Translations under genes and position numbers: made by a program
Shown: piece by piece, positions 4,896 to 57,407 of the stretch
Layout of the letters: each line of letters starts with the position of its first letter
Position numbering within the stretch: position 1 is the first letter of the stretch
Notes under the pieces: model-generated
Database searches by the model: none
Seen by the model: only the letters and a program-made list of their open reading frames with translations
What the model was told of the DNA's origin: nothing
Assembly (NCBI GenBank): GCA_002441425.1
Contig: DJWB01000001.1
Location: forward strand, 224,602 to 288,601
Direction of reading: 5' to 3'
Source: Patescibacteria group bacterium UBA6241
Lineage (GTDB): Bacteria > Patescibacteriota > Minisyncoccia > Phycocordibacterales > Phycocordibacteraceae
Length of the DNA stretch: 64,000 bases

Positions 4896-6146
4896 ATGAA
4901 CCTAGCAGAAGAGCTCTCGGCACGCGGACTGGTTGAGCACACCTCAGCACCTCTTGAAACTATTCTCAGTACTCCTCGTACTGTATATCTTGGCGTTGAT
5001 CCGTCTGCAGACTCAATGCAGGCAGGGAACTTAGTTGTGGTGCTTTTGATGAAAAGACTTGCAGATGCAGGACACAAAATAGTGCTTCTTGTTGGGGGTG
5101 GAACAGGGATGATTGGAGACCCAAGAGAATCTGGCGAGCGTTCTCTTTCAGATACTAAAACTATAGAACGGAACAAGAAGGCTATACGTGCTCAGATGCA
5201 GCAGATTATCGGGAAGAAAGTAACACTTGTAGACAACGCAGATTGGCTCCTCAAAGTTAAGCTTGTTGATTTCTTGCGTGATATTGGGAAGCATTTCTCA
5301 GTTAACGAGCTGATCAAGCGAGACATAATCAAAAGAAGACTAGAAACACCGGACGAGAGTATTTCATACACTGAGTTTGCATACTCTCTCCTTCAGGGAT
5401 ACGACTACTTGATTCTTAGCAGAGAAAAAGGAGTAGATCTTCAGGTTGGTGCTTCAGATCAATGGACAAATATACTTTCTGGAGTTGACCTCATACGCCG
5501 CAAAGAAGGGAAAGAAGCATATGCGCTAACTTGCCCGTTAGTTACTGACGCAAATGGAAAGAAGTTTGGAAAGTCTGAAGGAAATGCTGTATGGCTTGAT
5601 GGACACAAGACTTCTCCGTTTAGTTTTTACCAGTTCTGGCTTAATCAGCCTGACGAAATGGTTGAGAAGTACCTAAAGATGTATACCTTCATTCCTTTGG
5701 ATCAGATTGAAGAGATTCTAAGAGAGCATCGGAATAATCCAGGAGCCCGCGAGGCTCAGGAAGCACTCGCAAGAAGTATTACGGAACTTGTTCACGGACC
5801 GGGCGCTACGGCCGCAGCCACAGCTGCATCAAGTGCGCTGTTTGGGAAGGAAGGGTTGTCTCATCTTCCTCGGGAGGCACGCTCAATGCTTCTTACGGAG
5901 GCGCCAAACCTTCATGTATTATCAAGCGATATCAAAAAAGGACTTAACGTCCTTGATGTGCTAGCGACAAGTCCGCTTGTTACCTCAAAATCTGAGGCCC
6001 GACGCCTTATTGAAGCAAAGGGTATTTCTCTAAACGGGACTCAAGTATCCGAGGTAGACCAGCTGCTTACAGAGGGAGACTTTTCAGACGGAATAGCGCT
6101 CCTCAAGAAGGGAAAGAGGGATGTGCTCGTTCTTGTTTTGAAATAG
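4896..6146 (+). CDS. tyrS: Tyrosyl-tRNA synthetase with C-terminal S4 domain
   Basis: Global alignment to bacterial TyrRS (DPSADS..., AGHKIVLLVGGGTGMIGDP, KFGKS as KMSKS). The HIGH motif is replaced by MQAGN. Confidence 0.9.
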   Translation: MNLAEELSARGLVEHTSAPLETILSTPRTVYLGVDPSADSMQAGNLVVVLLMKRLADAGHKIVLLVGGGTGMIGDPRESGERSLSDTKTIERNKKAIRAQMQQIIGKKVTLVDNADWLLKVKLVDFLRDIGKHFSVNELIKRDIIKRRLETPDESISYTEFAYSLLQGYDYLILSREKGVDLQVGASDQWTNILSGVDLIRRKEGKEAYALTCPLVTDANGKKFGKSEGNAVWLDGHKTSPFSFYQFWLNQPDEMVEKYLKMYTFIPLDQIEEILREHRNNPGAREAQEALARSITELVHGPGATAAATAASSALFGKEGLSHLPREARSMLLTEAPNLHVLSSDIKKGLNVLDVLATSPLVTSKSEARRLIEAKGISLNGTQVSEVDQLLTEGDFSDGIALLKKGKRDVLVLVLK

Positions 6147-6174
6147 TCGGGAGGTATCGTATACTCGCCCTATT

Positions 6175-6260
6175 GCGTCGGTGGCAGAGTGGTCAATTGC
6201 AATTGGCTGTAAACCAATCGGATTTATCCTACGTAGGTTCGAATCCTACCCGGCGCACCA
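6175..6260 (+). tRNA. tRNA-Tyr (anticodon GTA), long variable arm, encoded CCA
   Basis: Cloverleaf built by hand: acceptor gcgtcgg/ccggcgc, anticodon loop ctGTAaa, 14-nt variable arm, T-loop ttcgaat, 3' acca. Confidence 0.9.
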
Positions 6261-6350
6261 AAAAGGCACTCTTCAAAAGGGGTGCTTTTTGCGTAAATAG
6301 GCATATACTCTTCCTTAGATCATGGCCGCTACTGGCACTGGTCTTTTGTA

Positions 6351-6896
6351 TTGGAGGAGGGAACTGTGGAGCTTCCACGACTAGTACTGCTAACAACGCG
6401 AGGGAAGGCAAGTCTCGTTGCAGAACGGGATCGCCTGAAATCTGAGTTGCGGACGATTCGCGAGAATCGGCCGTCGCTTGATGCCCGCTCCCCTGGGAAC
6501 ACCAGCAGCGGGACTCGCATGGCGGGCGAAAATGCCCGGCAAGAGGACCTCTACCTGCAACGCGTAGAGGAAATCCAGCATATTCTGAGCGTTGCGCAAA
6601 CTGCGCCGAAACCGAAAGGGGTAAAGACGGTTCAAATCGGGCACATCATAACTCTGTGTTATGCCTCATGGGTTGAAAAAACCCCTGGGGGTCCGAAGAC
6701 CTCTCGCCGCACGCGCAGGTACTACGAAATCGTTGGCTTCCGCGAGGGAGACTGCGATACGACGCCAGCACGTCTCTGCTACGAGGCGGGCCTGGCGAAA
6801 CATTTCGTGGGGGAATCCAAGGGCCACAAGGTCCTGGTGCGCATGGATGGAGAAGTCCGTCCGGTTACCCTCACCAACATCAAGATGCCCAAGTAG
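6351..6896 (+). CDS. GreA/GreB-family (Gfh/Rnk-like) transcription factor paralog on a GC-rich cassette
   Basis: C-terminal FKBP-like region YYEIVGFREGDC...GLAKHFVGESKGHKVLVRMDGEVRPVTLTNI parallels the GreA C-terminus. N-terminal coiled coil. The tool start is TTG 6351; the likelier start is GTG at about 6366, after GGAGGAGGG. GC-rich with GC3-rich codons, unlike the flanking genes. Confidence 0.55.
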   Translation: MEEGTVELPRLVLLTTRGKASLVAERDRLKSELRTIRENRPSLDARSPGNTSSGTRMAGENARQEDLYLQRVEEIQHILSVAQTAPKPKGVKTVQIGHIITLCYASWVEKTPGGPKTSRRTRRYYEIVGFREGDCDTTPARLCYEAGLAKHFVGESKGHKVLVRMDGEVRPVTLTNIKMPK

Positions 6897-6972: not shown

Positions 6973-7929
6973 ATGGAATCAGACAAGCCTATTTTGCTCT
7001 CAGGTATCAAACCAACAGGGACCCCCCATATTGGCAATTACTTTGGTGCACTTCGTCAATTTGTAGAATTTCAAACTATTGGCACCCATCAGTGCTATTT
7101 CATGATTGCGGACTACCACGCATTAAACTCAGTCCAGAACGCAGGCCAGATGAGAGAGCTAACTAAGGAGCTTGTTTTAACGTTCTTAGCTATAGGACTT
7201 AATCCAGACAAGGTAGTTATCTTTAAACAGTCTGATGTGCCTGCACACACGGAGCTTGCATGGATTTTTGACACCATCACTACGGTTCCATACCTTATGC
7301 GCGCACATGCATACAAGGATGCAGAAGCAAAAAAGCATGAAATATCTGTAGGCACTTTTAACTATCCAATGCTCATGGCTGCAGATATTCTTTTGTATAA
7401 CGCAGCGAGAGTACCGGTTGGACAGGATCAGAAGCAACATATTGAATACGCGAGAGATACTGCCGAGAAGTTCAACCGTATTTATGGAGAAACCTTTGCG
7501 GTTCCTGAGGAATACATTGTTCCTGACGTTGCTATTGTCCCTGGAATTGACGGGCAAAAGATGAGCAAGAGTTACAACAACACGATCCCTCTCTTTGCGA
7601 GCCGTTCAGAAATTGAAGAGCTAGTTATGAGTATTGTTACAGACTCTTCAGGAGACCGACCTGAGAATGTGTATCAAATGCATAGACTACTCAAGTCTGA
7701 GCATGATTTGGTACCTGTATACGAAGAACATAAAGGAAAGTACAAAGCATTGAAGGAAGCACTCATAGAAGATCTTGATGCGTTCATAAAACCGATGCGA
7801 GAAAGATATGCAGAACTTGCTGCAAATCCTAAGATTGTCTCGGAAACTTTGGAAAAGGGAGCAGAGTTCGCGCGAGCACGTGCTGAGGAGAAAATTGAAG
7901 AGGTACGCAGGGCAGTTGGGGTTGCATAA
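6973..7929 (+). CDS. trpS: Tryptophanyl-tRNA synthetase
   Basis: Motifs GIKPTGTPHIGNYFGAL and KMSKS. Length 318 aa. Confidence 0.9.
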   Translation: MESDKPILLSGIKPTGTPHIGNYFGALRQFVEFQTIGTHQCYFMIADYHALNSVQNAGQMRELTKELVLTFLAIGLNPDKVVIFKQSDVPAHTELAWIFDTITTVPYLMRAHAYKDAEAKKHEISVGTFNYPMLMAADILLYNAARVPVGQDQKQHIEYARDTAEKFNRIYGETFAVPEEYIVPDVAIVPGIDGQKMSKSYNNTIPLFASRSEIEELVMSIVTDSSGDRPENVYQMHRLLKSEHDLVPVYEEHKGKYKALKEALIEDLDAFIKPMRERYAELAANPKIVSETLEKGAEFARARAEEKIEEVRRAVGVA

Positions 7930-8285: not shown

Positions 8286-9635
8286 ATGGAACGGACACTA
8301 ATTGGCGAGCTTTCCGCACACAAAGGAAGCGAGATTTGCATACAAGGATGGGTTGACGTGCGCAGAGACCAAGGGAAACTTGTCTTCTTTGATTTCAGAG
8401 ACAGGAGCGGGATTGTGCAGGGTGTAGTACTTCCAGGAGATGAGAGTCTTATGGAGATAGCTAAAACTGTCCGTACAGAAGCAGTTGTATCTGTGCAGGG
8501 AATTGTTAACGAACGTCCAGAGCGTAACGTACAGGCAGATAAGCTAAACGGAGATATTGAACTTGAAATCAAACGAATAACTATTCTTGCACTCCCACAG
8601 ACTCTTCCATTTGAGCTAGACGCAGAACTTAATCTTGATACGTATCTTGATTATCTCCCACTCACACTTCGCAGCGAGCGCAGTCGCGCAATCTTTACTG
8701 TGCAGGCTGAGATTGTGCGCGCATACCGTGCATTCTTAAACCAGGAAGGCTTTACAGAGTTCCAAGCACCAAAACTTATCGGAGACGATGCTGAGGGCAG
8801 CGGAGAAGTTTTTGAAGTCCCATACTTCTATGGGAAGACTGCGCATCTTGCCACTTCACCTCAGTTGTACAAGCAGATTATGGTTGGGGCATTGGAGCGA
8901 GTCTTTTCTATTGGCATCGTATTCCGCGCTGAGAAGCACAGCACAACAAGACACTTGAATGAGTACACCTCTATGGATATGGAGATGGGCTTCATCAAGG
9001 ACCACACAGATGTCATGGCAGTTGAGAACAAGCTTATGCGCTATGTCTCTGCTGAGCTTGCTAAGAACTGCAGCAAAGAGTTTGCGCTTCTTAAGGCTGA
9101 GGTGCCTGAAGTTCCAGAACGTATCCCAAATCTAAAGTTGCGTGAGGCGCAGGAATTGATTTTTGCAGAGACTGGCAAAGATAAGAGAAATGAACCAGAT
9201 CTTGAGCCGGAAGACGAGCGTTGGCTCTGTGAATGGTCTAAGCGTGAGCACAACTCAGACTTTGTGTTCGTTACGCACTATCCTGTCTCAAAGCGTCCTA
9301 TGTACACCTTTGAAGATTCAACTGATCCGGGATATACAAACGGGTTTGATCTTTTGTTCCGTGGCGTTGAGATAACTACAGGAGGGCAGCGTAGACATGA
9401 CTACGAGAATCTTATTGAAGGAATAAAAATGAAAGGTCTTGATCCTGAGAAGTTTTCTTACTATCTCCAGGCTTTCAAATATGGCATTCCACCGCACGGC
9501 GGATGGGGTATGGGTCTAGAGCGACTCACCGCAAAGTTCCTTAATCTTGCAAACGTTAAGGAGGCAACACTATTCCCACGAGATATTAACCGCATTGATA
9601 CTCGCCTTACGGAGAATGAACCAACTGAAGTATGA
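8286..9635 (+). CDS. aspS: Aspartyl-tRNA synthetase, short archaeal/type-2 form
   Basis: Motifs SPQLYKQ, FRAE, GGWGMGLERL. About 449 aa and lacks the GAD insertion. Confidence 0.85.
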   Translation: MERTLIGELSAHKGSEICIQGWVDVRRDQGKLVFFDFRDRSGIVQGVVLPGDESLMEIAKTVRTEAVVSVQGIVNERPERNVQADKLNGDIELEIKRITILALPQTLPFELDAELNLDTYLDYLPLTLRSERSRAIFTVQAEIVRAYRAFLNQEGFTEFQAPKLIGDDAEGSGEVFEVPYFYGKTAHLATSPQLYKQIMVGALERVFSIGIVFRAEKHSTTRHLNEYTSMDMEMGFIKDHTDVMAVENKLMRYVSAELAKNCSKEFALLKAEVPEVPERIPNLKLREAQELIFAETGKDKRNEPDLEPEDERWLCEWSKREHNSDFVFVTHYPVSKRPMYTFEDSTDPGYTNGFDLLFRGVEITTGGQRRHDYENLIEGIKMKGLDPEKFSYYLQAFKYGIPPHGGWGMGLERLTAKFLNLANVKEATLFPRDINRIDTRLTENEPTEV

Positions 9636-18106: not shown

Positions 18107-19540
18107 ATGTCTGTACGAACTCGTTTTGCTCCAAGTCCAACCGGATTCATACACGTAGGAAGTGCGCGCACTGCGTTGTATGCGTGGCTCTTTGCCAAAA
18201 AGCACGGAGGTCAGTTTGTTCTTCGCATTGAAGACACAGACAAGGCTCGTGAGGTTGAGGGTGCTATCGGGCACTTAATGGAGTCTCTTAAGTGGTTGGG
18301 TATTCAATGGGACGAGAGTATTGATGTAGGGGGTCCCTACGAGCCATACCTCCAATCTGCACGTATAGACTCACACCAAGATTACGCACGTCGCCTTATT
18401 GATGCGGGCTTTGCATATCCAGACCCCTATACGCCCGAAGAGGTAGACGTATTTAGGAAGAGGGCAGAGGAAGAGAAGCGACCGTTTCTATTCCGTGATC
18501 ATCGCCCTGACCAATTTGAGGAATGGGATGGTACGAAACCATTGCGCTTTAAAGTGCCGGTTATAAAGAGGTATGAGTGGGAGGATGTTGTGTTTGGAAC
18601 TCTCTCCGCAGGTGAGGAGGCTCTGGACGATTTCATTCTCATAAAGGGAGATGGCTACCCAACCTATAACTTTGCACATGTTATAGACGATATTGAAATG
18701 CGTGTTACGCACGTCATGCGCGGACAAGAATTCATATCTTCAACTCCAAAGTTCCTCTCGTTATATGACGCTCTTGGAGAGACACCACCTATTTTTGCAA
18801 CACTCCCTCCAATTCTTGGAGATCAAGGTACTAAGAAACTTTCAAAGCGAGACGGTGCGAAAGACATTCTTGAGTATCGTGACGAGGGATACTTGCCTGA
18901 AGCTATGATTAATTTCTTGGCGCTTCTTGGATGGAACCCAGGCGGAGAGAAAGAGATTTACACACGCAACGAACTTGTAGCCGCATTTGAACTTGAGCGT
19001 ATTCAGCGATCTGGCGCACGCTTTGACGAAGAAAAACTTTTGTTCATGAACAGAGAGCACATGCGTATGTTGTCTGATGAAGCGTTCATAGAGCGCGGAG
19101 GGTTAACGGCGCCTGACACTGCAAAATTAAAGAAAGCAGTTCCACTCCTTAAAGAAAGAACCCATACATTTGGAGAAGCGAAAGCTATGCTTGCAGGGGA
19201 GCTGGCTTGTCTGTGGGAAGCCCCAAAACTGGCCAAAGAGCTACTTATTGCCAAAGAGCCAGCAGAGCGCCCAGACCTTACTAAAACAGCCCTGGAGGCC
19301 ATTTTGGAGGCCCTAGACGGCATTCCAGAGAGCCTTTCTGTAGAGGAGGTGAAGGAGATCCTCATGCCTCTCGCAGACGCGGAAGAGGCGAAGGGGAAGG
19401 GAGGAAGAGGGGCAGTGCTGTGGCCAGCTCGGTACGCACTATCGGGTCTAGAAAAATCTCCAGACCCATTTATCTTGGTATCTATTCTTGGAACAGAGGA
19501 ATCTACTTCACGCCTACGCACTGCGCTTGCTATACTGTAG
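18107..19540 (+). CDS. gltX: Glutamyl-tRNA synthetase
   Basis: Motifs RFAPSPTGFIHVGSARTALY and KLSKRDGA. Confidence 0.9.
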   Translation: MSVRTRFAPSPTGFIHVGSARTALYAWLFAKKHGGQFVLRIEDTDKAREVEGAIGHLMESLKWLGIQWDESIDVGGPYEPYLQSARIDSHQDYARRLIDAGFAYPDPYTPEEVDVFRKRAEEEKRPFLFRDHRPDQFEEWDGTKPLRFKVPVIKRYEWEDVVFGTLSAGEEALDDFILIKGDGYPTYNFAHVIDDIEMRVTHVMRGQEFISSTPKFLSLYDALGETPPIFATLPPILGDQGTKKLSKRDGAKDILEYRDEGYLPEAMINFLALLGWNPGGEKEIYTRNELVAAFELERIQRSGARFDEEKLLFMNREHMRMLSDEAFIERGGLTAPDTAKLKKAVPLLKERTHTFGEAKAMLAGELACLWEAPKLAKELLIAKEPAERPDLTKTALEAILEALDGIPESLSVEEVKEILMPLADAEEAKGKGGRGAVLWPARYALSGLEKSPDPFILVSILGTEESTSRLRTALAIL

Positions 19541-31534: not shown

Positions 31535-32998
31535 ATGTCTTGGTTTTCTCAGCTGTTTGCGCGTGCCCCAAAACCACTTACAAGCGACGCGCCGCTTTTT
31601 TTCACCAATACACTCACTGGGAAAAAGGATCTCTTTTCTCCCCAAACAGCGGGACAGGCGACCATGTATTCTTGTGGTCCTACCGTCTACAGCAAGGCTC
31701 AAATTGGAAATCTTCGCGCCTATATATTCTCTGATCTTATTGCACGAGTACTTTCTGAAAATGGATATCGTGTCCGTAGAGTTATAAACATTACAGATGT
31801 TGGACATCTGCAAGGAGACGGTGACGAAGGAGAGGACAAGATTGAAGCAGGAGCAAAGAAAGAGGGACTCAATGCTGAAGCAATTGCCACAAAATATACG
31901 AAACTCTTCGTTGACGATTTGTCTGATCTTAATGTAGATGTTGCACACATTCAGTTCCCTCGTGCTACAGAATATATAAAGGAACAGATTGCTATTATTA
32001 AACTCCTTGAAGAAAAGGGATTCACGTACCGCACCTCAGATGGAATTTATTTTGATACTGAAAAATACCCAAATTATGGTGCGCTAGATCATAGCGGACC
32101 TAAACTTAAAGAAGAAGCGTTCGCAGAGATTGGACGAAGAATAAAAACAAATAAGGATAAACAGCATCCCGCAGATTTTGCTCTTTGGAAGTTCTCTCCG
32201 CTAGGTGCGCGCAGACAGCAGGAGTGGAGTTCGCCTTGGGGTATCGGATTCCCTGGATGGCACATTGAATGTTCTGCAATGGCACGTGCACTCTTGGGAC
32301 AACCTATTGATATCCATACGGGCGGTATGGACCACATACCTGTGCATCACACCAATGAGATTGCGCAGTCTGAATGTGCATTCGGAAAACCTCTTGCACG
32401 CTTCTGGATACATGAAGCCTTCCTTACTCTCTCAGGAGAAAAGATTTCAAAGTCTTTGAATAACGATATATACCTCTCAGATATTATTGAGCGAGGATAC
32501 AGTCCGCTTGCATTACGATATTTTTTCTTGCAGGCACATTACCGCACTCCCCTCTCGTTCTCATGGGAAGCACTCGCTGCAGCGAATGAAGCATTAGAGC
32601 GACTGACAAAGCTTGCCCGCCGTATTAACGAAGAGGCAAAGTACAAGGCAACTCCTACAGACACGAGTCGCAGAGTTATTGCATTGTTGCGAGACGATCT
32701 TGCAACACCTGCAGCTCTTGGACTTCTATGGGAAGCGGTGCGTGACGAAGATATGGAGCGAACAGAACAGCTTGCCGTTATTCTTGCTGCAGATGCAGTG
32801 TTTGGACTTTCGCTGCTAGAACCAGCTCAGAAGATTGAAGTACCTGAAAATATTCAGAGACTCATAGAAAAGCGCGAAGAAGCACGGAAAAGTAGAGATT
32901 TTGCTACTGCAGACGCACTTCGTATCCACATAGCAAACAGTGGATATCATGTTGAAGACGGCCCTTCTGGCCCCATAGTCACCACCCGTCCTGGTTGA
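31535..32998 (+). CDS. cysS: Cysteinyl-tRNA synthetase
   Basis: Co-linear with E. coli CysRS (MYSCGPTVY, WHIECSAM, KISKSLNN). HIGH is replaced by QIGN. Confidence 0.9.
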   Translation: MSWFSQLFARAPKPLTSDAPLFFTNTLTGKKDLFSPQTAGQATMYSCGPTVYSKAQIGNLRAYIFSDLIARVLSENGYRVRRVINITDVGHLQGDGDEGEDKIEAGAKKEGLNAEAIATKYTKLFVDDLSDLNVDVAHIQFPRATEYIKEQIAIIKLLEEKGFTYRTSDGIYFDTEKYPNYGALDHSGPKLKEEAFAEIGRRIKTNKDKQHPADFALWKFSPLGARRQQEWSSPWGIGFPGWHIECSAMARALLGQPIDIHTGGMDHIPVHHTNEIAQSECAFGKPLARFWIHEAFLTLSGEKISKSLNNDIYLSDIIERGYSPLALRYFFLQAHYRTPLSFSWEALAAANEALERLTKLARRINEEAKYKATPTDTSRRVIALLRDDLATPAALGLLWEAVRDEDMERTEQLAVILAADAVFGLSLLEPAQKIEVPENIQRLIEKREEARKSRDFATADALRIHIANSGYHVEDGPSGPIVTTRPG

Positions 32999-41201: not shown

Positions 41202-42944
41202 ATGATATATACTTCCTATATCGCCTTAGCTTCACGGAATTCAACCATGTCAAATTTTAACGGTGCTCCGAGACAGTCTGATCCTCTGAAACAGGAGCAG
41301 TTCAATTCTGCGGAAGACAGCGCTTTCGACCAGGCGCGTGAACGCGTCCTTGCGAGAAATAGAGACTTTGTAGAAACCGACAAAAACAGAGAGGAATCAT
41401 TCTCTGCACCTCGAACCGTTCAGGAAGAGCAGGATGATATAGAATGGAAAAATTTGCTCCTAAACACCGAAGCTACACTCGGGAGCATTGGTAACCCAGA
41501 CCAACGTAAGTTACTACAAGCAAACCCTGTTATGGCAAATGATGCTACGTATTTCTTAGCATCACAGACTTCGAGCTGGATAGATAGTAGGCATCTTGCC
41601 AAGAATATTCCTGACGATGTTCAGGAAGTGTGGAGGAGTGCGGAAAAGGATGACCGAAAACTTTTTGTTGAGACCGGTAAGCGCCTTTATCCTGAAGTGG
41701 AGCTTTCGTCTAACAATGTTGATACGATTTTTGGAACCCTTAAGAACGATGCCATGAAGTTCAGTAGCAAGGAACTAAAAGATTGGCTTCAAGATTTTCC
41801 TGTGCATGGAGCTGCCAACAGTTCCATGAATGGAAGTCCTGATAAGTTCCTAAGTCAGGTTGAATCCTTTATTCAAAGAGGAGCGGACAGTATCGGGAGA
41901 GCACGCAAGAGCAGTGACCCTGTTACATCAATGGAAATCGCAGCCGTTGGAAAAGGTCTATACGCGCTCGAACTACTCAGACAAGATCTGGAGCAACGCG
42001 TCCAAGAGAGAAAGGAGCCAAAAATTCAACATGGTGCTCTTAATACTGATGAAGAACTTCGTCGCAAAGCTGCGGAGCTCAGTAAATTAAATATTAGTGG
42101 AGAAATGAGCGCAGACACCAAGGCAAAACTTGAGGCTCACAGAGCAAAAATGGGGCTGTCTGTTTCTCCCGAAGTGCAACAAGGAATTCCAGTTTCTGAG
42201 GTAGACCCAGTTCGACCAGAAGCTACCTCTGAAGAGCATCCAAACACCCCGCAAACGCCAGGAGAAAAATTCTTTGCAGCGAAGGAAGCGGAACTCAAGG
42301 GAAACATCCAGAGCTTCTTTGAAGAGGAGAACGCGGAGTTCTCAAAAGTAGAGGTAAGCGGTCCTGCTTTTGTTGAGAATCCTGAAAAGCTTGAGATGAA
42401 GAAGGATTCGCTTCAGAGGGCTGAAGCACTCGTAAAAAGACTTCTCGATCCTAAATCTGCTGAAGACATCCGGGACAACTGGTTGGAGAATATAGACGAG
42501 ACAAATAATCTTTCGCAGTTTTTTACTAATGCGCTGACAAAAGAGATTCAGGGCAGCAGAACTGCGCCAAAGGAAGGAGGCAGTAGGAATATTGCCAGCT
42601 CTCTATTTAAGGAAATCATTCACAAGCGCCTGTATCCTTACCTGTCACCGTTGCCGCCTGCAGCTACCCTAAGTTCCAGAGGATTCGAACAGTTTAAAAA
42701 CCCCGCTCTTAAATACTGGGGAGAATCACTTACTAATGATGGTTTGACGGTTAACGAACCGGAAGCCCTGTTAGAAAAACTTGAAAGTGCGATTACTCAC
42801 GCCGCAAGTCAATTAGAGCTCGCACAGAGCGATACAGTGAATCCTCCTACCTCACTGGAATTAAGAATGGTTGGAGAACGCATTTTAGGCATAGAGCTAC
42901 TTAGAAGTGCCATAAAACAAAAACTTGAGCTTAGGAATCAGTAA
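41202..42944 (+). CDS. Large acidic hydrophilic protein of unknown function (580 aa), cargo bracketed by IR1
   Basis: Long ORF with no TM segment and no recognisable catalytic motif. Glu/Lys-rich helical character. The alternative start is Met16. Confidence 0.5.
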   Translation: MIYTSYIALASRNSTMSNFNGAPRQSDPLKQEQFNSAEDSAFDQARERVLARNRDFVETDKNREESFSAPRTVQEEQDDIEWKNLLLNTEATLGSIGNPDQRKLLQANPVMANDATYFLASQTSSWIDSRHLAKNIPDDVQEVWRSAEKDDRKLFVETGKRLYPEVELSSNNVDTIFGTLKNDAMKFSSKELKDWLQDFPVHGAANSSMNGSPDKFLSQVESFIQRGADSIGRARKSSDPVTSMEIAAVGKGLYALELLRQDLEQRVQERKEPKIQHGALNTDEELRRKAAELSKLNISGEMSADTKAKLEAHRAKMGLSVSPEVQQGIPVSEVDPVRPEATSEEHPNTPQTPGEKFFAAKEAELKGNIQSFFEEENAEFSKVEVSGPAFVENPEKLEMKKDSLQRAEALVKRLLDPKSAEDIRDNWLENIDETNNLSQFFTNALTKEIQGSRTAPKEGGSRNIASSLFKEIIHKRLYPYLSPLPPAATLSSRGFEQFKNPALKYWGESLTNDGLTVNEPEALLEKLESAITHAASQLELAQSDTVNPPTSLELRMVGERILGIELLRSAIKQKLELRNQ

Positions 42945-43158: not shown

Positions 43159-43283
43159 AAAAAGATACTTCCTCGGAAGATAGTTCGGAATACAATCCCG
43201 CCCATGGCGGGATTGTATTCATTTTCGCGCGCAGACGCGCGGCATTCTCAGACGGCGGGGATACTCTGAAATGCATGGATTTG
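43155..43283. repeat. IR2 left copy (129 bp) containing a 33-bp perfect palindrome (43188-43220) and a GC palindrome (43226-43241)
   Basis: Identical to the reverse complement of 44719-44847. Confidence 0.9.
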
Positions 43284-43330
43284 CACTTCTCTTTCGAGCC
43301 ATACCGTCGCAAGTGATACCATGCAAAGAT

Positions 43331-44875
43331 ATGGCACCGAGATATTTTCTCTACGCGCGCAAAAGTACCGAGCCGGACGACAAGCAAGCGATGAGTATTC
43401 CGGCGCAGCTCGTTGAGTTGCGAGAGTTCGCGCGGAGAGAAAACCTGAATATTGTCAGTGAGTACACTGAATCAAAAAGCGCAAAGACACCGGGACGCGA
43501 TGTGTTTGGCGATATGATGATGCGTCTTGAGCGCGACGAAGCCAACGGAATAATCGCGTGGCATCCCGATAGGTTGGCGAGAAACAGCATTGACGGTGGG
43601 CGCATCATATACGCCGTAGACACGGGCAAGATCGTGTCGTTGCGCTTTCCGACATTCTGGTTTGAACCCACGCCACAGGGTCTATTTATGCTTCAGGTGG
43701 CGTTCGGGCAGTCCAAGTACTATTCAGATAACCTCGGCGAGAACACGAGGCGTGGGATGCGGCAGAAACTGCGTAGAGGCGAGTGGCTCACAAAAGCGCC
43801 GTTCGGGTATACCAACAACCCTAAAACCCGCAATATCGAGCCGGACGCGGTAAAAGCAAAAATCATCGTTCGCGCTTTTGACGAGTACGCAACCGGAAAA
43901 TATACGCTCGTTTCCATGGCGCAGTTTCTCCAAGACCTCGGCATCACGACCAAAGCCGGAACACAGCTCGGCAAAGCGTCCATAAAGCGCATTTTGACGA
44001 ATCGTGCATACCTCGGCTTTACGAAACACCTCGGCGAATTCTTTCCCGGCTCGTTCGCTTCGATTATCACTTCAACGCAGTTTGAAGCGGTGCAAAATAT
44101 CCTCGCAAAACGCGAGCATCGCTACAAACGCCGTCAAAGGAACGATTTCCCGTTTACCAATCTTTTTCGCTGCACTGAGTGTACGTCTATGTACACGGCG
44201 CAATGGACAACTGGAAAATCTGGCGGACGCTATCGCTACTACCGTTGCACGAAAAAGAAAGGAAACTGCACATCAGGCTATGTGCGCGAGGATATATTGC
44301 TCGCGCAAATTCAAGAGCGGATCGAAAGCATCTCGCTTCGCGATAGGCATACGGGCTGGATGTTGAACAAGGTGGACGAGTGGGAGCGCAAAGAAAATAG
44401 TTCCAACGGGAGCGAGATACAAAATCTTTCTTCCAAGATATCAGCGAGCGAAGAGCGCATGGACAAACTGGTTTCCGCATACCTGGACGGCGATATCCCC
44501 AAGCCAATCTATTTGAAGCGGAAAGACGAAATTATGCGCGCTCTCGCCTCGCTGAACGAAGAAAAGAAAGATTTCGAGAACGGAAAGAAAAAGTGGGTCG
44601 AACCCTTGCGTGCGTGGGTTCTAGACACCAAACAAGCCATGGAATTGAGTTCGTCCGACAACTTGCACGAAATCTCCGCTTTCGTCAGGAAGGTCGGAAC
44701 GAACCCCCGTATTGAATACAAATCCATGCATTTCAGAGTATCCCCGCCGTCTGAGAATGCCGCGCGTCTGCGCGCGAAAATGAATACAATCCCGCCATGG
44801 GCGGGATTGTATTCCGAACTATCTTCCGAGGAAGTATCTTTTTGTGACCTCACGGGGAATCGAACCCCGATTTGA
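43331..44875 (+). CDS. Large serine recombinase (resolvase catalytic domain + recombinase domain + zinc ribbon + coiled coil)
   Basis: N-terminal YFLYARKSTEPDD...SIPAQ catalytic Ser region, Cys cluster CTECT...YRCTKKKGNC, and a coiled-coil tail. The ATG at 43331 is internal to the tool ORF. The ORF reads through IR2 and 30 nt into tRNA-Glu before its first stop, so the true C-terminus is uncertain. Confidence 0.8.
   Translation: MAPRYFLYARKSTEPDDKQAMSIPAQLVELREFARRENLNIVSEYTESKSAKTPGRDVFGDMMMRLERDEANGIIAWHPDRLARNSIDGGRIIYAVDTGKIVSLRFPTFWFEPTPQGLFMLQVAFGQSKYYSDNLGENTRRGMRQKLRRGEWLTKAPFGYTNNPKTRNIEPDAVKAKIIVRAFDEYATGKYTLVSMAQFLQDLGITTKAGTQLGKASIKRILTNRAYLGFTKHLGEFFPGSFASIITSTQFEAVQNILAKREHRYKRRQRNDFPFTNLFRCTECTSMYTAQWTTGKSGGRYRYYRCTKKKGNCTSGYVREDILLAQIQERIESISLRDRHTGWMLNKVDEWERKENSSNGSEIQNLSSKISASEERMDKLVSAYLDGDIPKPIYLKRKDEIMRALASLNEEKKDFENGKKKWVEPLRAWVLDTKQAMELSSSDNLHEISAFVRKVGTNPRIEYKSMHFRVSPPSENAARLRAKMNTIPPWAGLYSELSSEEVSFCDLTGNRTPI
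44719..44847. repeat. IR2 right copy (inverted); its last 3 nt overlap the tRNA-Glu 3' end
   Basis: 129/129 identity to 43155-43283 in reverse complement. The palindrome sits at 44782-44814. Confidence 0.9.
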
Positions 44876-44916
44876 TCCGTGAGAGGGATCTGTCCTAACC
44901 GTTAGACGATGAGGCC
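44845..44916 (-). tRNA. tRNA-Glu (anticodon CTC), no encoded CCA
   Basis: Hand-built cloverleaf: acceptor ggcctca/tgaggtc, D-arm identical in layout to E. coli tRNA-Glu, anticodon loop ctCTCac, T-loop ttcgatt. Confidence 0.85.
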
Positions 44917-56162: not shown

Positions 56163-57407
56163 TTATCGTTGAAGCAACTCAGCGCGGCCCACGCGAGTAA
56201 CCTCGCCTGTCTTCCTATGAACAAGCTCAACCTGTCCTGTCGCGAGTGCTTCTTTCCCAATAACAATTCTCCACGGAATACCAATGAGGTCTGCATCTGC
56301 AAACTTCTCTCCGGCACGGGCATCCCGGTCGTCATACAGCACGGACTTTCCAGCATCAGTAAGTTCCTCATATAACCCTTCTGCAAAGGCAGCAATCTCT
56401 GCGTCATTTCCTGCGAGAGAAACGAGGTGGTACGCAAAAGGAGAAACAGACTCAGGCCACACGATTCCCTTTTCGTCCGCAAAAGCTTCAACAATCGTTC
56501 CCATGAGACGAGTGATGCCAATGCCGTATGAACCCAAAATAACGGGCTTCTCGTTGCCCTCTTCGTCTCTATACGTGAGTCCTAATTGCTGAGACTTCAC
56601 ATCTCCGAAACTAAAGATATTTCCAACTTCAACTGCTTTCTCTTCAACAAGATCTTCTCGTTTAATATCAAGCTGTGCGAGTACTTCTGGAGTAAGTACT
56701 TCCTTGTTAACAGCAAGTCGCTTTTCTTTGTGTACATAAATAATATCCTCCCCAGCATCACAGAGAGTCTGGAACTCGTGACTAAATTGTGTGAACGCGC
56801 CTCCTGACGCAAAGGTGAGATAGGTGCGCTCTCCAAGTCCTACACGCATAAATACGTTGTGGTATGCCTGAATGGCTGCGTTATAAAATTTAAGGTGCGC
56901 TTCCTCGTCACGTGTGTAGGAATACATATCCTTCATAACAAATTCCCTTCCACGCATAATTCCTGACTTTGCGCGAAGCTCATTTCGCAGCTTTGTCTGG
57001 AACTGGTACACGAATGCAGGAAGATCTCGGTAGCTCTCAAGGTACTCAGTCATGAGTTCAGTAATAGGCTCTTCGTGGGACCATCCGAATCCAACCTCAG
57101 ATCCATTCTTAAGTTCAGACTTAAACCAGACGTCTACGTTCTTATCATCCCAACGATCAGTCTTCTCCCAGAGCTCCTTGCTCTGCAGACTTGTCATGAG
57201 TAGTTCGTGAGCACCTACTGCCTCCATCTCCTCACGCACAATTTCTTTGATACGCTCAACAACTTTGAGTCCGAGAGGGAGATACGCGTACACCCCTGCC
57301 ATTTCTTTGTGTACATATCCTGCACGAATAAGAAGCTGTGCATTCTTGGCAAGCTCGTCCTTTGGGGCTTCCCGACGAGTCTTTGTGAAGAGGCTGGACT
57401 GGCGCAT
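56163..57407 (-). CDS. proS: Prolyl-tRNA synthetase, short form lacking the INS editing domain
   Basis: Motif 2 RGREFVMKDMYSY and class IIa layout. Length is 414 aa, versus about 570 aa for INS-containing forms. Confidence 0.85.
   Translation of the reverse strand: MRQSSLFTKTRREAPKDELAKNAQLLIRAGYVHKEMAGVYAYLPLGLKVVERIKEIVREEMEAVGAHELLMTSLQSKELWEKTDRWDDKNVDVWFKSELKNGSEVGFGWSHEEPITELMTEYLESYRDLPAFVYQFQTKLRNELRAKSGIMRGREFVMKDMYSYTRDEEAHLKFYNAAIQAYHNVFMRVGLGERTYLTFASGGAFTQFSHEFQTLCDAGEDIIYVHKEKRLAVNKEVLTPEVLAQLDIKREDLVEEKAVEVGNIFSFGDVKSQQLGLTYRDEEGNEKPVILGSYGIGITRLMGTIVEAFADEKGIVWPESVSPFAYHLVSLAGNDAEIAAFAEGLYEELTDAGKSVLYDDRDARAGEKFADADLIGIPWRIVIGKEALATGQVELVHRKTGEVTRVGRAELLQR

Follow-up and report, generated by a model that had tools for sequence, protein, structure and literature searches.

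[quoted passage not shown] The observations behind this reading are the sequence itself, its conservation, purifying selection, synteny with the gene for tRNA-Tyr, and a fold model. The HIGH element contacts the ATP phosphates, chiefly in the transition state of amino-acid activation, and its histidines are textbook catalytic residues whose role in the transition state was defined on TyrRS. The gene and its relevant sites are as follows:

4896..6146, + strand: tyrS, full-length bacterial-type tyrosyl-tRNA synthetase of 416 aa (TIGR00234, Pfam, alignment with E. coli TyrRS, AlphaFold model)
5004..5006, + strand: Ser37, equivalent to Thr40 of Bacillus stearothermophilus (Bst) TyrRS (Ser in 99 and Thr in 21 of 120 aligned homologs)
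5016..5030, + strand: variant class I signature 1, M-Q-A-G-N replacing L-H-I/L-G-H, with Q42 for the first His and N45 for the fourth-position His
5562..5576, + strand: KFGKS, class I signature 2 (KMSKS loop), aa 223-227 (KFGKS in 120/120 homologs)

Nucleotides 5016-5030 read ATG CAG GCA GGG AAC, which are translated as M41 Q42 A43 G44 N45 of the TyrRS open reading frame (ORF). The signature stretch, DPSADSMQAGNL, was aligned by phmmer column by column and free of gaps with DPTADSLHLGHL of E. coli TyrRS (PDB 6hb5), which bears out the initial annotation that both HIGH histidines are substituted (H to Q and H to N); its statement that the KMSKS-type signature is kept, as KFGKS, was likewise confirmed. 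No gaps were needed either when MQAGN was aligned with the signatures of 6hb5, 2jan, and 6n0w. In the numbering of the Bst enzyme, taken from a reference sequence that agreed with the literature numbering in the signature region, Q42 and N45 occupy the positions of H45 and H48. MQAGN is a specific substitution within a well-aligned motif, repeated in dozens of independent assemblies, and not a product of chance. The PROSITE class I pattern, in the form [HT] for position 1 and [HNTG] for position 4, was applied as a regular expression and gave no match in the TyrRS, Q42 being the sole residue that failed, and it matched the TrpRS of the window. In the class I signature, a fourth-position Asn and a first-position Thr have long been known; Gln is absent from this pattern at position 1. 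Motif-based annotation would mistake QxGN genes for degenerate ones wherever it demands that position 1 be His or Thr.

Apart from the literal signature histidines, all tested features of a bacterial-type TyrRS are present in the protein, and a literal H-x-G-H is no criterion for membership of the synthetases, since accepted TrpRS carry TIGN and the TyrRS 6n0w carries HIGS. The protein scores 348.8 bits against the TIGR00234 tyrS equivalog model (cutoff 113.8), and Pfam recognises the class I W/Y catalytic domain (tRNA-synt_1b, PF00579, E=3e-72) and, at the C-terminus, an S4-like tRNA-binding domain (SYY_C-terminal/S4, PF22421 and PF01479). The alignment with E. coli TyrRS (6hb5) runs from end to end (E=3.5e-95), and solved bacterial relatives are found at E values of 1e-95 to 1e-86, compared with 6.5e-4 for the archaeal 2cyb. 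An AlphaFold2 model, which was built from an input alignment of 35 sequences and read as confidence values and secondary structure, has a mean pLDDT of 86.3 and a pTM of 0.84, the low scores being confined to two known mobile loops. A strand at residues 29-34 is followed by a helix at residues 43-57, with Q42 as its N-cap residue and its first turn containing N45; in comparison with the location of the HIGH signature described for the class I fold (PMC10485003), MQAGN is predicted to sit at the canonical place, the N-terminus of helix alpha-1. When the model was searched with Foldseek, bacterial TyrRS ranked first, the best being M. tuberculosis 2jan (TM 0.80).

Conservation was examined in an alignment of the 120 closest database homologs (67-100% identity) together with the Bst reference. 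The tyrosine/adenylate-binding residues Y34, D78, Y169, Q173, D176, D194, and Q195 (Bst numbering) are all present in the window TyrRS and, along with R86 and KFGKS, are invariant in 120 of the 120 homologs, and D38 is Asp in 119 and Glu in one. Against an 85%-identical ortholog with conserved gene order (GCA_018826145.1), the dN/dS of tyrS is 0.043 and those of the neighbouring genes are 0.013 and 0.018; as dS is saturated (~2.5), the tyrS value can be read as an upper-level sign that purifying selection is strong. In short, tyrS is an ordinary essential housekeeping synthetase gene, and the variant leaves its identity unchanged. A cyclodipeptide synthase (CDPS) or a dead TyrRS-like pseudo-domain was also considered and ruled out by KFGKS and the S4-like domain, Pfam giving no match to a CDPS family.

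A tRNA gene lies directly beyond tyrS:

6175..6260, + strand: tRNA-Tyr (GTA), 29 nt downstream of tyrS (ARAGORN, sequence, fold)

This tRNA has an encoded CCA besides a G1-C72 pair, A73, and a long variable arm; the last three features give it bacterial identity, and it is of the kind recognised by a bacterial-type TyrRS with an S4-like domain. Of 27 related loci, 26 keep tyrS linked to tRNA-Tyr, and each of the 27 tRNA-Tyr examined (from those 26 loci and the window) starts with G1. The bacterial G1-C72 pair matters because several groups of Parcubacteria have acquired an archaeal-type TyrRS together with a C1-G72 tRNA-Tyr (PMC5370408). For the window gene, an archaeal/eukaryal-type TyrRS was ruled out by the bacterial best relatives, the weak match to 2cyb, and the G1-C72 tRNA-Tyr.

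Judged by the names of its close homologs, the window belongs to Patescibacteria/Paceibacterota (Parcubacteria, near Kaiserbacteria). The variant is common among close relatives. In the 120 homologs, position 1 of the signature is Gln in 68 and His in 52, and position 4 is Asn in 114 and His in 6, with QxGN or HxGN in 114 sequences and the canonical HxGH in 6. The initial annotation had held that canonical orthologs, combined with other inactivating lesions in this copy, would speak against a natural variant; the canonical form is the rare one among these homologs, and no other lesions were found. Among 39 species-representative genomes of the same group, QxGN was detected in 19, HxGN in 9, and HxGH in 11 (28/39 being xxGN), frequencies that are biased upward for Q by a scan seeded with query peptides including ADSMQAGN. 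Parsimony on a neighbour-joining tree gave, as a rough count, about 10 changes between His and Gln at position 1 and 3 between His and Asn at position 4. TyrRS pairs that are 82-86% identical (14-18% divergent) differ in their H/Q state, and the nearest neighbour is in the opposite state for 8 of the 120 sequences. The codons used at position 1 are CAG and CAA for Gln and CAT and CAC for His, which lie one base apart. Such frequent switching suggests that the difference between His and Gln may be nearly neutral on an Asn background.

Beyond the lineage, the least biased estimate of frequency comes from HMMER, run exhaustively against 1.84 billion cluster representatives, as word-indexed searches are biased upward by their preference for sequences with 5-mers in common with the query. 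In the best 150 TyrRS clusters of the HMMER list (50%-identity clusters; 36-53% identity to the query, two fragments being higher), position 4 was Asn in about 70, His in 38, and Ser in 36, and position 1 was Gln in 13 (~9%) and Thr in 7-8, T-I/V-G-N being literally present in 7 or 8 cluster representatives. HIGN was also found in the TyrRS of cultured Promicromonospora, Xylanimonas, Myceligenerans, and Bifidobacterium bohemicum, HVGS in those of Empedobacter, Moheibacter, and Weeksellaceae, and HIGS in the solved Elizabethkingia anophelis TyrRS (6n0w). Across these sequences, replacement of the fourth-position His by Asn or Ser is commonplace in bacterial TyrRS, and replacement of the first-position His by Gln is rarer; the equal treatment that the initial annotation gave to the two substitutions was not sustained.

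One TyrRS from outside the group (P0186), encoded on contigs of 2.2-3.7 Mb, carries QLGN, as do 17 of its 18 closest homologs in a word-indexed search that is biased upward, the single exception being a pattern mis-hit. The next relatives of this clade are HAGH proteins named Chloroflexota, and further QVGN clades are among the same matches; P0186 itself possibly belongs to Chloroflexota, an assignment taken only from named relatives at ~57% identity. QxGN TyrRS is not confined to Patescibacteria and recurs in several other TyrRS clades. Of the proposal that MQAGN is a lineage-specific variant and not a pseudogene, the natural, conserved variant in an intact ORF stands, and the restriction to one lineage does not, as QxGN also occurs in those other clades. 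No description of a Q-x-G-N TyrRS or CysRS was found in the literature searched, which was of limited extent, and the QxGN TyrRS variant appears to be unreported.

Gln and Thr at position 1 keep company with an amide at position 4. Of 87 TyrRS sequences with Gln or Thr at position 1, 86 have Asn and one has Gln at position 4, and neither residue was found at position 1 among the TyrRS sequences collected with His (0/44) or Ser (0/36) at position 4. This rule, by which Gln or Thr occurs only together with an amide (Asn, once Gln), offers a clean and testable contingency in the evolution of an active site. Two further synthetase genes of the window are relevant here:

6973..7929, + strand: trpS, TrpRS with H-I-G-N and KMSKS, a sister class Ic enzyme that serves as comparison case (Pfam)
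31535..32998, + strand: cysS, CysRS with Q-I-G-N (aa 56-59) and KISKS (aa 303) (Pfam tRNA-synt_1e)

The Q-x-G-N that the initial annotation had also reported for CysRS is indeed present and was aligned with HLGH of PDB 8qhp and HIGN of PDB 3sp1. The rule extends to the CysRS of the lineage: in 120 homologs, position 4 is Asn in all, and position 1 is His in 89, Gln in 29, and Thr in 2. TrpRS has HxGN at 15 of 15 related loci, and the GluRS of the window carries an ordinary HVGS. The hint that Gln is a trait shared by TyrRS and CysRS did not hold up, as one relative (C7867-004) has QAGN in TyrRS with HIGN in CysRS, and another, with a 426,504-bp contig, has HAGN in TyrRS with QIGN in CysRS. A genome-wide shift from His to Gln in class I signatures was ruled out by this lack of co-occurrence, by the His of TrpRS at all 15 loci, and by the HVGS of GluRS. 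On the sequences compared, Gln in TyrRS and Gln in CysRS are of independent origin, and because the two do not co-occur, the succession from H..H through H..N to Q/T..N appears to be an accessible path that drift has followed repeatedly and independently, and not a genome-wide change.

For the enzyme encoded by the window, we infer the hydrogen-bond roles, the catalytic competence, and the near-neutrality as follows. As tyrosine is activated, the amide NH2 of Gln42 would supply, in the transition state, the hydrogen bond that the ATP phosphates otherwise receive from the first His, and the amide of Asn45 would take over the contact of the fourth-position His with the ATP ribose, the remaining phosphate contacts being made by Ser37 (in place of Thr40) and the intact KFGKS loop. 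Such a TyrRS should be able, perhaps at a lower rate, to activate tyrosine and to load it onto the neighbouring tRNA-Tyr. In evolution, the position-4 His would have changed to Asn first, a step that is common in bacteria, and on the Asn background position 1 would then be free to alternate by drift between Gln and His, with Thr (the residue of the TrpRS signature TIGN) as a further option, through single-base changes with little cost to fitness.

Leatherbarrow, Fersht and Winter reportedly found in 1985 that removal of His45 lowers kcat about 10^2-fold, and are said to have identified Thr40 of Bst TyrRS as the gamma-phosphate-binding partner of His45. Papers from the Fersht laboratory are likewise said to place His45 and Thr40 in contact with the gamma-phosphate in the transition state and to have His48 hydrogen-bonded to the ribose ring oxygen, the His48-to-Asn mutant reportedly being near wild type in activity. 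Mutagenesis of TyrRS, as summarised in PMC5919687, showed that a change of either HIGH histidine lowers activity, both residues stabilising the transition state. Given this outcome and the cost reported for His45, a TyrRS with Gln at position 1 may be slower than, and not equivalent to, its His counterpart.

A tentative extension, to which we would give somewhat less than even odds, is that Asn is an epistatic permissive state, on which His, Gln, and Thr then interchange almost neutrally, and that x-x-G-N is a second stable solution which has been reached repeatedly. If so, the first histidine would be merely a neutral hydrogen-bond donor, and a TrpRS-like x-x-G-N would have been reached repeatedly by different class I synthetases.

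Q-x-G-N might instead be adaptive, through altered handling of ATP or through less binding of inhibitors that mimic the aminoacyl-adenylate; one example would be an enzyme tuned, in its ATP affinity or its rate, to the life of slow-growing episymbionts poor in ATP, and an analogue of the mupirocin hyper-resistance of IleRS2 another. We know of no inhibitor or ecological correlate of a Q-x-G-N TyrRS, and we consider adaptation an unlikely explanation. Its supporting points are that replacement of the first His by Gln recurs in two enzymes of the lineage, TyrRS and CysRS, that Gln is fixed in unrelated TyrRS clades (such as that of P0186, leaving aside the mis-hit), and that an altered HIGH signature is a proven route to resistance in IleRS2 (PMC10485003). 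In a covariation scan of TyrRS, made with no phylogenetic correction, two positions also follow the H/Q state: position 47 is V in the Q enzymes and L in the H enzymes, and position 263 is Y in the Q enzymes and F or Y in the H enzymes. This covariation may simply reflect phylogeny, and we do not take the two positions to be compensatory. The frequent two-way switching between close relatives, by contrast, resembles drift and is unlike a selective sweep, the Gln states of TyrRS and CysRS do not coincide genome by genome, and the TrpRS of the same lineage retains its His, all of which argue against adaptation.

The loss of both signature histidines could also mark an inactive or repurposed paralog, charging being left to another TyrRS elsewhere, for instance one of the archaeal type as in some CPR bacteria, and archaeal-type genes are indeed present in several Parcubacteria groups (PMC5370408). 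Such a paralog is very improbable: strong purifying selection has preserved the tyrosine/adenylate-binding residues, KFGKS, and the S4-like domain; the tRNA-Tyr next to the gene carries G1-C72 and not the C1-G72 that is paired with the archaeal-type enzyme; most members of the clade have the xxGN variant; and the genomes of the lineage are small (contigs of ~0.6-1 Mb). The sole point in favour of a sequencing or assembly artefact would be that textbook sequences rarely show the motif, and independent assemblies effectively refute it: an identical TyrRS protein is present in an independent dataset (P0001), MQAGN is shared by 66 other clusters and by about 19 species-representative genomes of unrelated projects, and the ortholog in GCA_018826145.1 has the same five signature residues with a synonymous GCG for GCA. 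A working TyrRS with amides for histidines is the reading that we prefer.

The chief relevance of these findings is to synthetase enzymology, as they reveal a large natural set of apparently functional TyrRS and CysRS with Gln and Asn in place of the HIGH histidines. The close natural TyrRS pairs that differ in their H/Q state (82-86% identity) provide material for measuring the contribution of the first histidine, and with it a direct test of transition-state assignments that are forty years old.

Compared with known systems, the window TyrRS resembles bacterial type-1 TyrRS (E. coli 6hb5, M. tuberculosis 2jan, and B. stearothermophilus 2ts1) over its full length at ~40-45% identity, with a Rossmann catalytic domain, an alpha-helical domain, and an S4-like C-terminal domain in the same order, and it shares their tyrosine-binding residues, KFGKS loop, and tRNA-Tyr with a long V-arm and G1-C72; it differs from them in having Q-A-G-N for H-x-G-H, Ser for Thr40, and Leu for Cys35. 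The HIGS and HIGN TyrRS (6n0w; Promicromonospora, Xylanimonas, and Bifidobacterium bohemicum), which are housekeeping enzymes of cultured bacteria, also lack the fourth-position His but retain the first, and QxGN apparently arose from HxGN. In class Ia, the HIGN CysRS of Borrelia burgdorferi (3sp1) and the QIGN CysRS of the window offer a parallel, as Asn is fixed at position 4 in the CysRS of the lineage and His is recurrently replaced by Gln at position 1; CysRS is, however, a different enzyme, and its Gln states are independent of those of TyrRS and lie in different genomes. IleRS2, another class I synthetase with a natural clade-level alteration of HIGH, has a non-canonical G/A-x-H-H, is active, confers mupirocin hyper-resistance, and escaped notice until sequences were surveyed (Brkic et al. 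2023, PMC10485003). There the His has moved, positions 1 and 3 being swapped, whereas in the window TyrRS it is lost, and the window TyrRS is not known to have a resistance phenotype of this kind. The classical bacterial TrpRS (E. coli and B. stearothermophilus), of the sister class Ic, carries TIGN in place of HIGH and is active without either histidine, pairing a small polar residue at position 1 with a fourth-position Asn (PMC10201369, PMC3684856). The window TyrRS likewise has neither histidine and ends its signature in Asn; its position 1, however, is Gln and not Thr, and the amino acid and the tRNA served are others, while the TrpRS of the window lineage itself retains His (HIGN).

Among 114 TyrRS homologs with an xAGN signature (any residue at the first position, Asn at the fourth), two residues of the protein were found to vary with the state, His or Gln, of the first signature position. 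Residue 47 (nt 5034-5036) is Val, Leu or Ala in Q-state sequences and Leu in all H-state sequences, and residue 263 (nt 5682-5684) is Tyr in all Q-state sequences and mostly Phe in H-state ones. These associations could be compensatory, or could be phylogenetic only.

The window contains six aminoacyl-tRNA synthetase genes within 64 kb, as follows.

4896..6146, + strand, TyrRS
6973..7929, + strand, TrpRS
8286..9635, class II D/K/N synthetase
18107..19540, GluRS, signature HVGS
31535..32998, + strand, CysRS (cysS), QIGN for HIGH and KISKS for KMSKS
56163..57407, class II G/H/P/S/T synthetase

For CysRS, the fourth signature position was Asn in all 120 homologs (120/120), and the first was His in 89, Gln in 29 and Thr in two. 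The pattern K[MIL]SKS was matched in only 65 of the 120, implying that the second CysRS signature is also variable in this lineage.

Directly downstream of tyrS lies the following gene.

6175..6260, + strand, tRNA-Tyr(GTA)

Related Paceibacteria share this linkage irrespective of the signature state: it is retained at all but one of 27 loci (drawn from database loci L001-L040 and L081), hence at 26. Every tRNA-Tyr in the linked loci and in the window begins with G1, the bacterial identity. A 181-aa ORF without a Pfam match (6351..6896, + strand) separates tRNA-Tyr from trpS; in L081, its syntenic place is occupied by a called gene of 120 aa, likewise without a domain.

Elsewhere in the window, the 3' end of a large serine recombinase gene overlaps a tRNA-Glu gene on the opposite strand.

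43271..44875, + strand, large serine recombinase with Resolvase, Recombinase and zinc-ribbon domains
44844..44916, - strand, tRNA-Glu(CTC)

Upstream of the recombinase is a 580-aa ORF (41202..42944) with no Pfam match, and the region may represent a mobile element integrated at a tRNA gene.

Among the related loci, the tyrS match of L040 (3001..4220; Kaiserbacteria CG10_big_fil_rev_8_21_14_0_10_56_12) has the signature MHIGH and eight stop codons in the reported frame, probably reflecting a frameshift or assembly problem of that MAG. A QLGN signature is fixed in the TyrRS clade of the following locus, being present in 17 of the 18 closest homologs of the cluster representative P0186, with a pattern mis-hit as the sole exception.

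L083, contig ctg258031l (2,999,341 bp), 5001..6410, QLGN TyrRS clade (proteins P0186 and P0403-P0419)

Because the contigs bearing this clade are 2.2-3.7 Mb long, it does not come from a tiny-genome CPR bacterium; its nearest named relatives are Chloroflexota (~57% identity), whose signature is HAGH.
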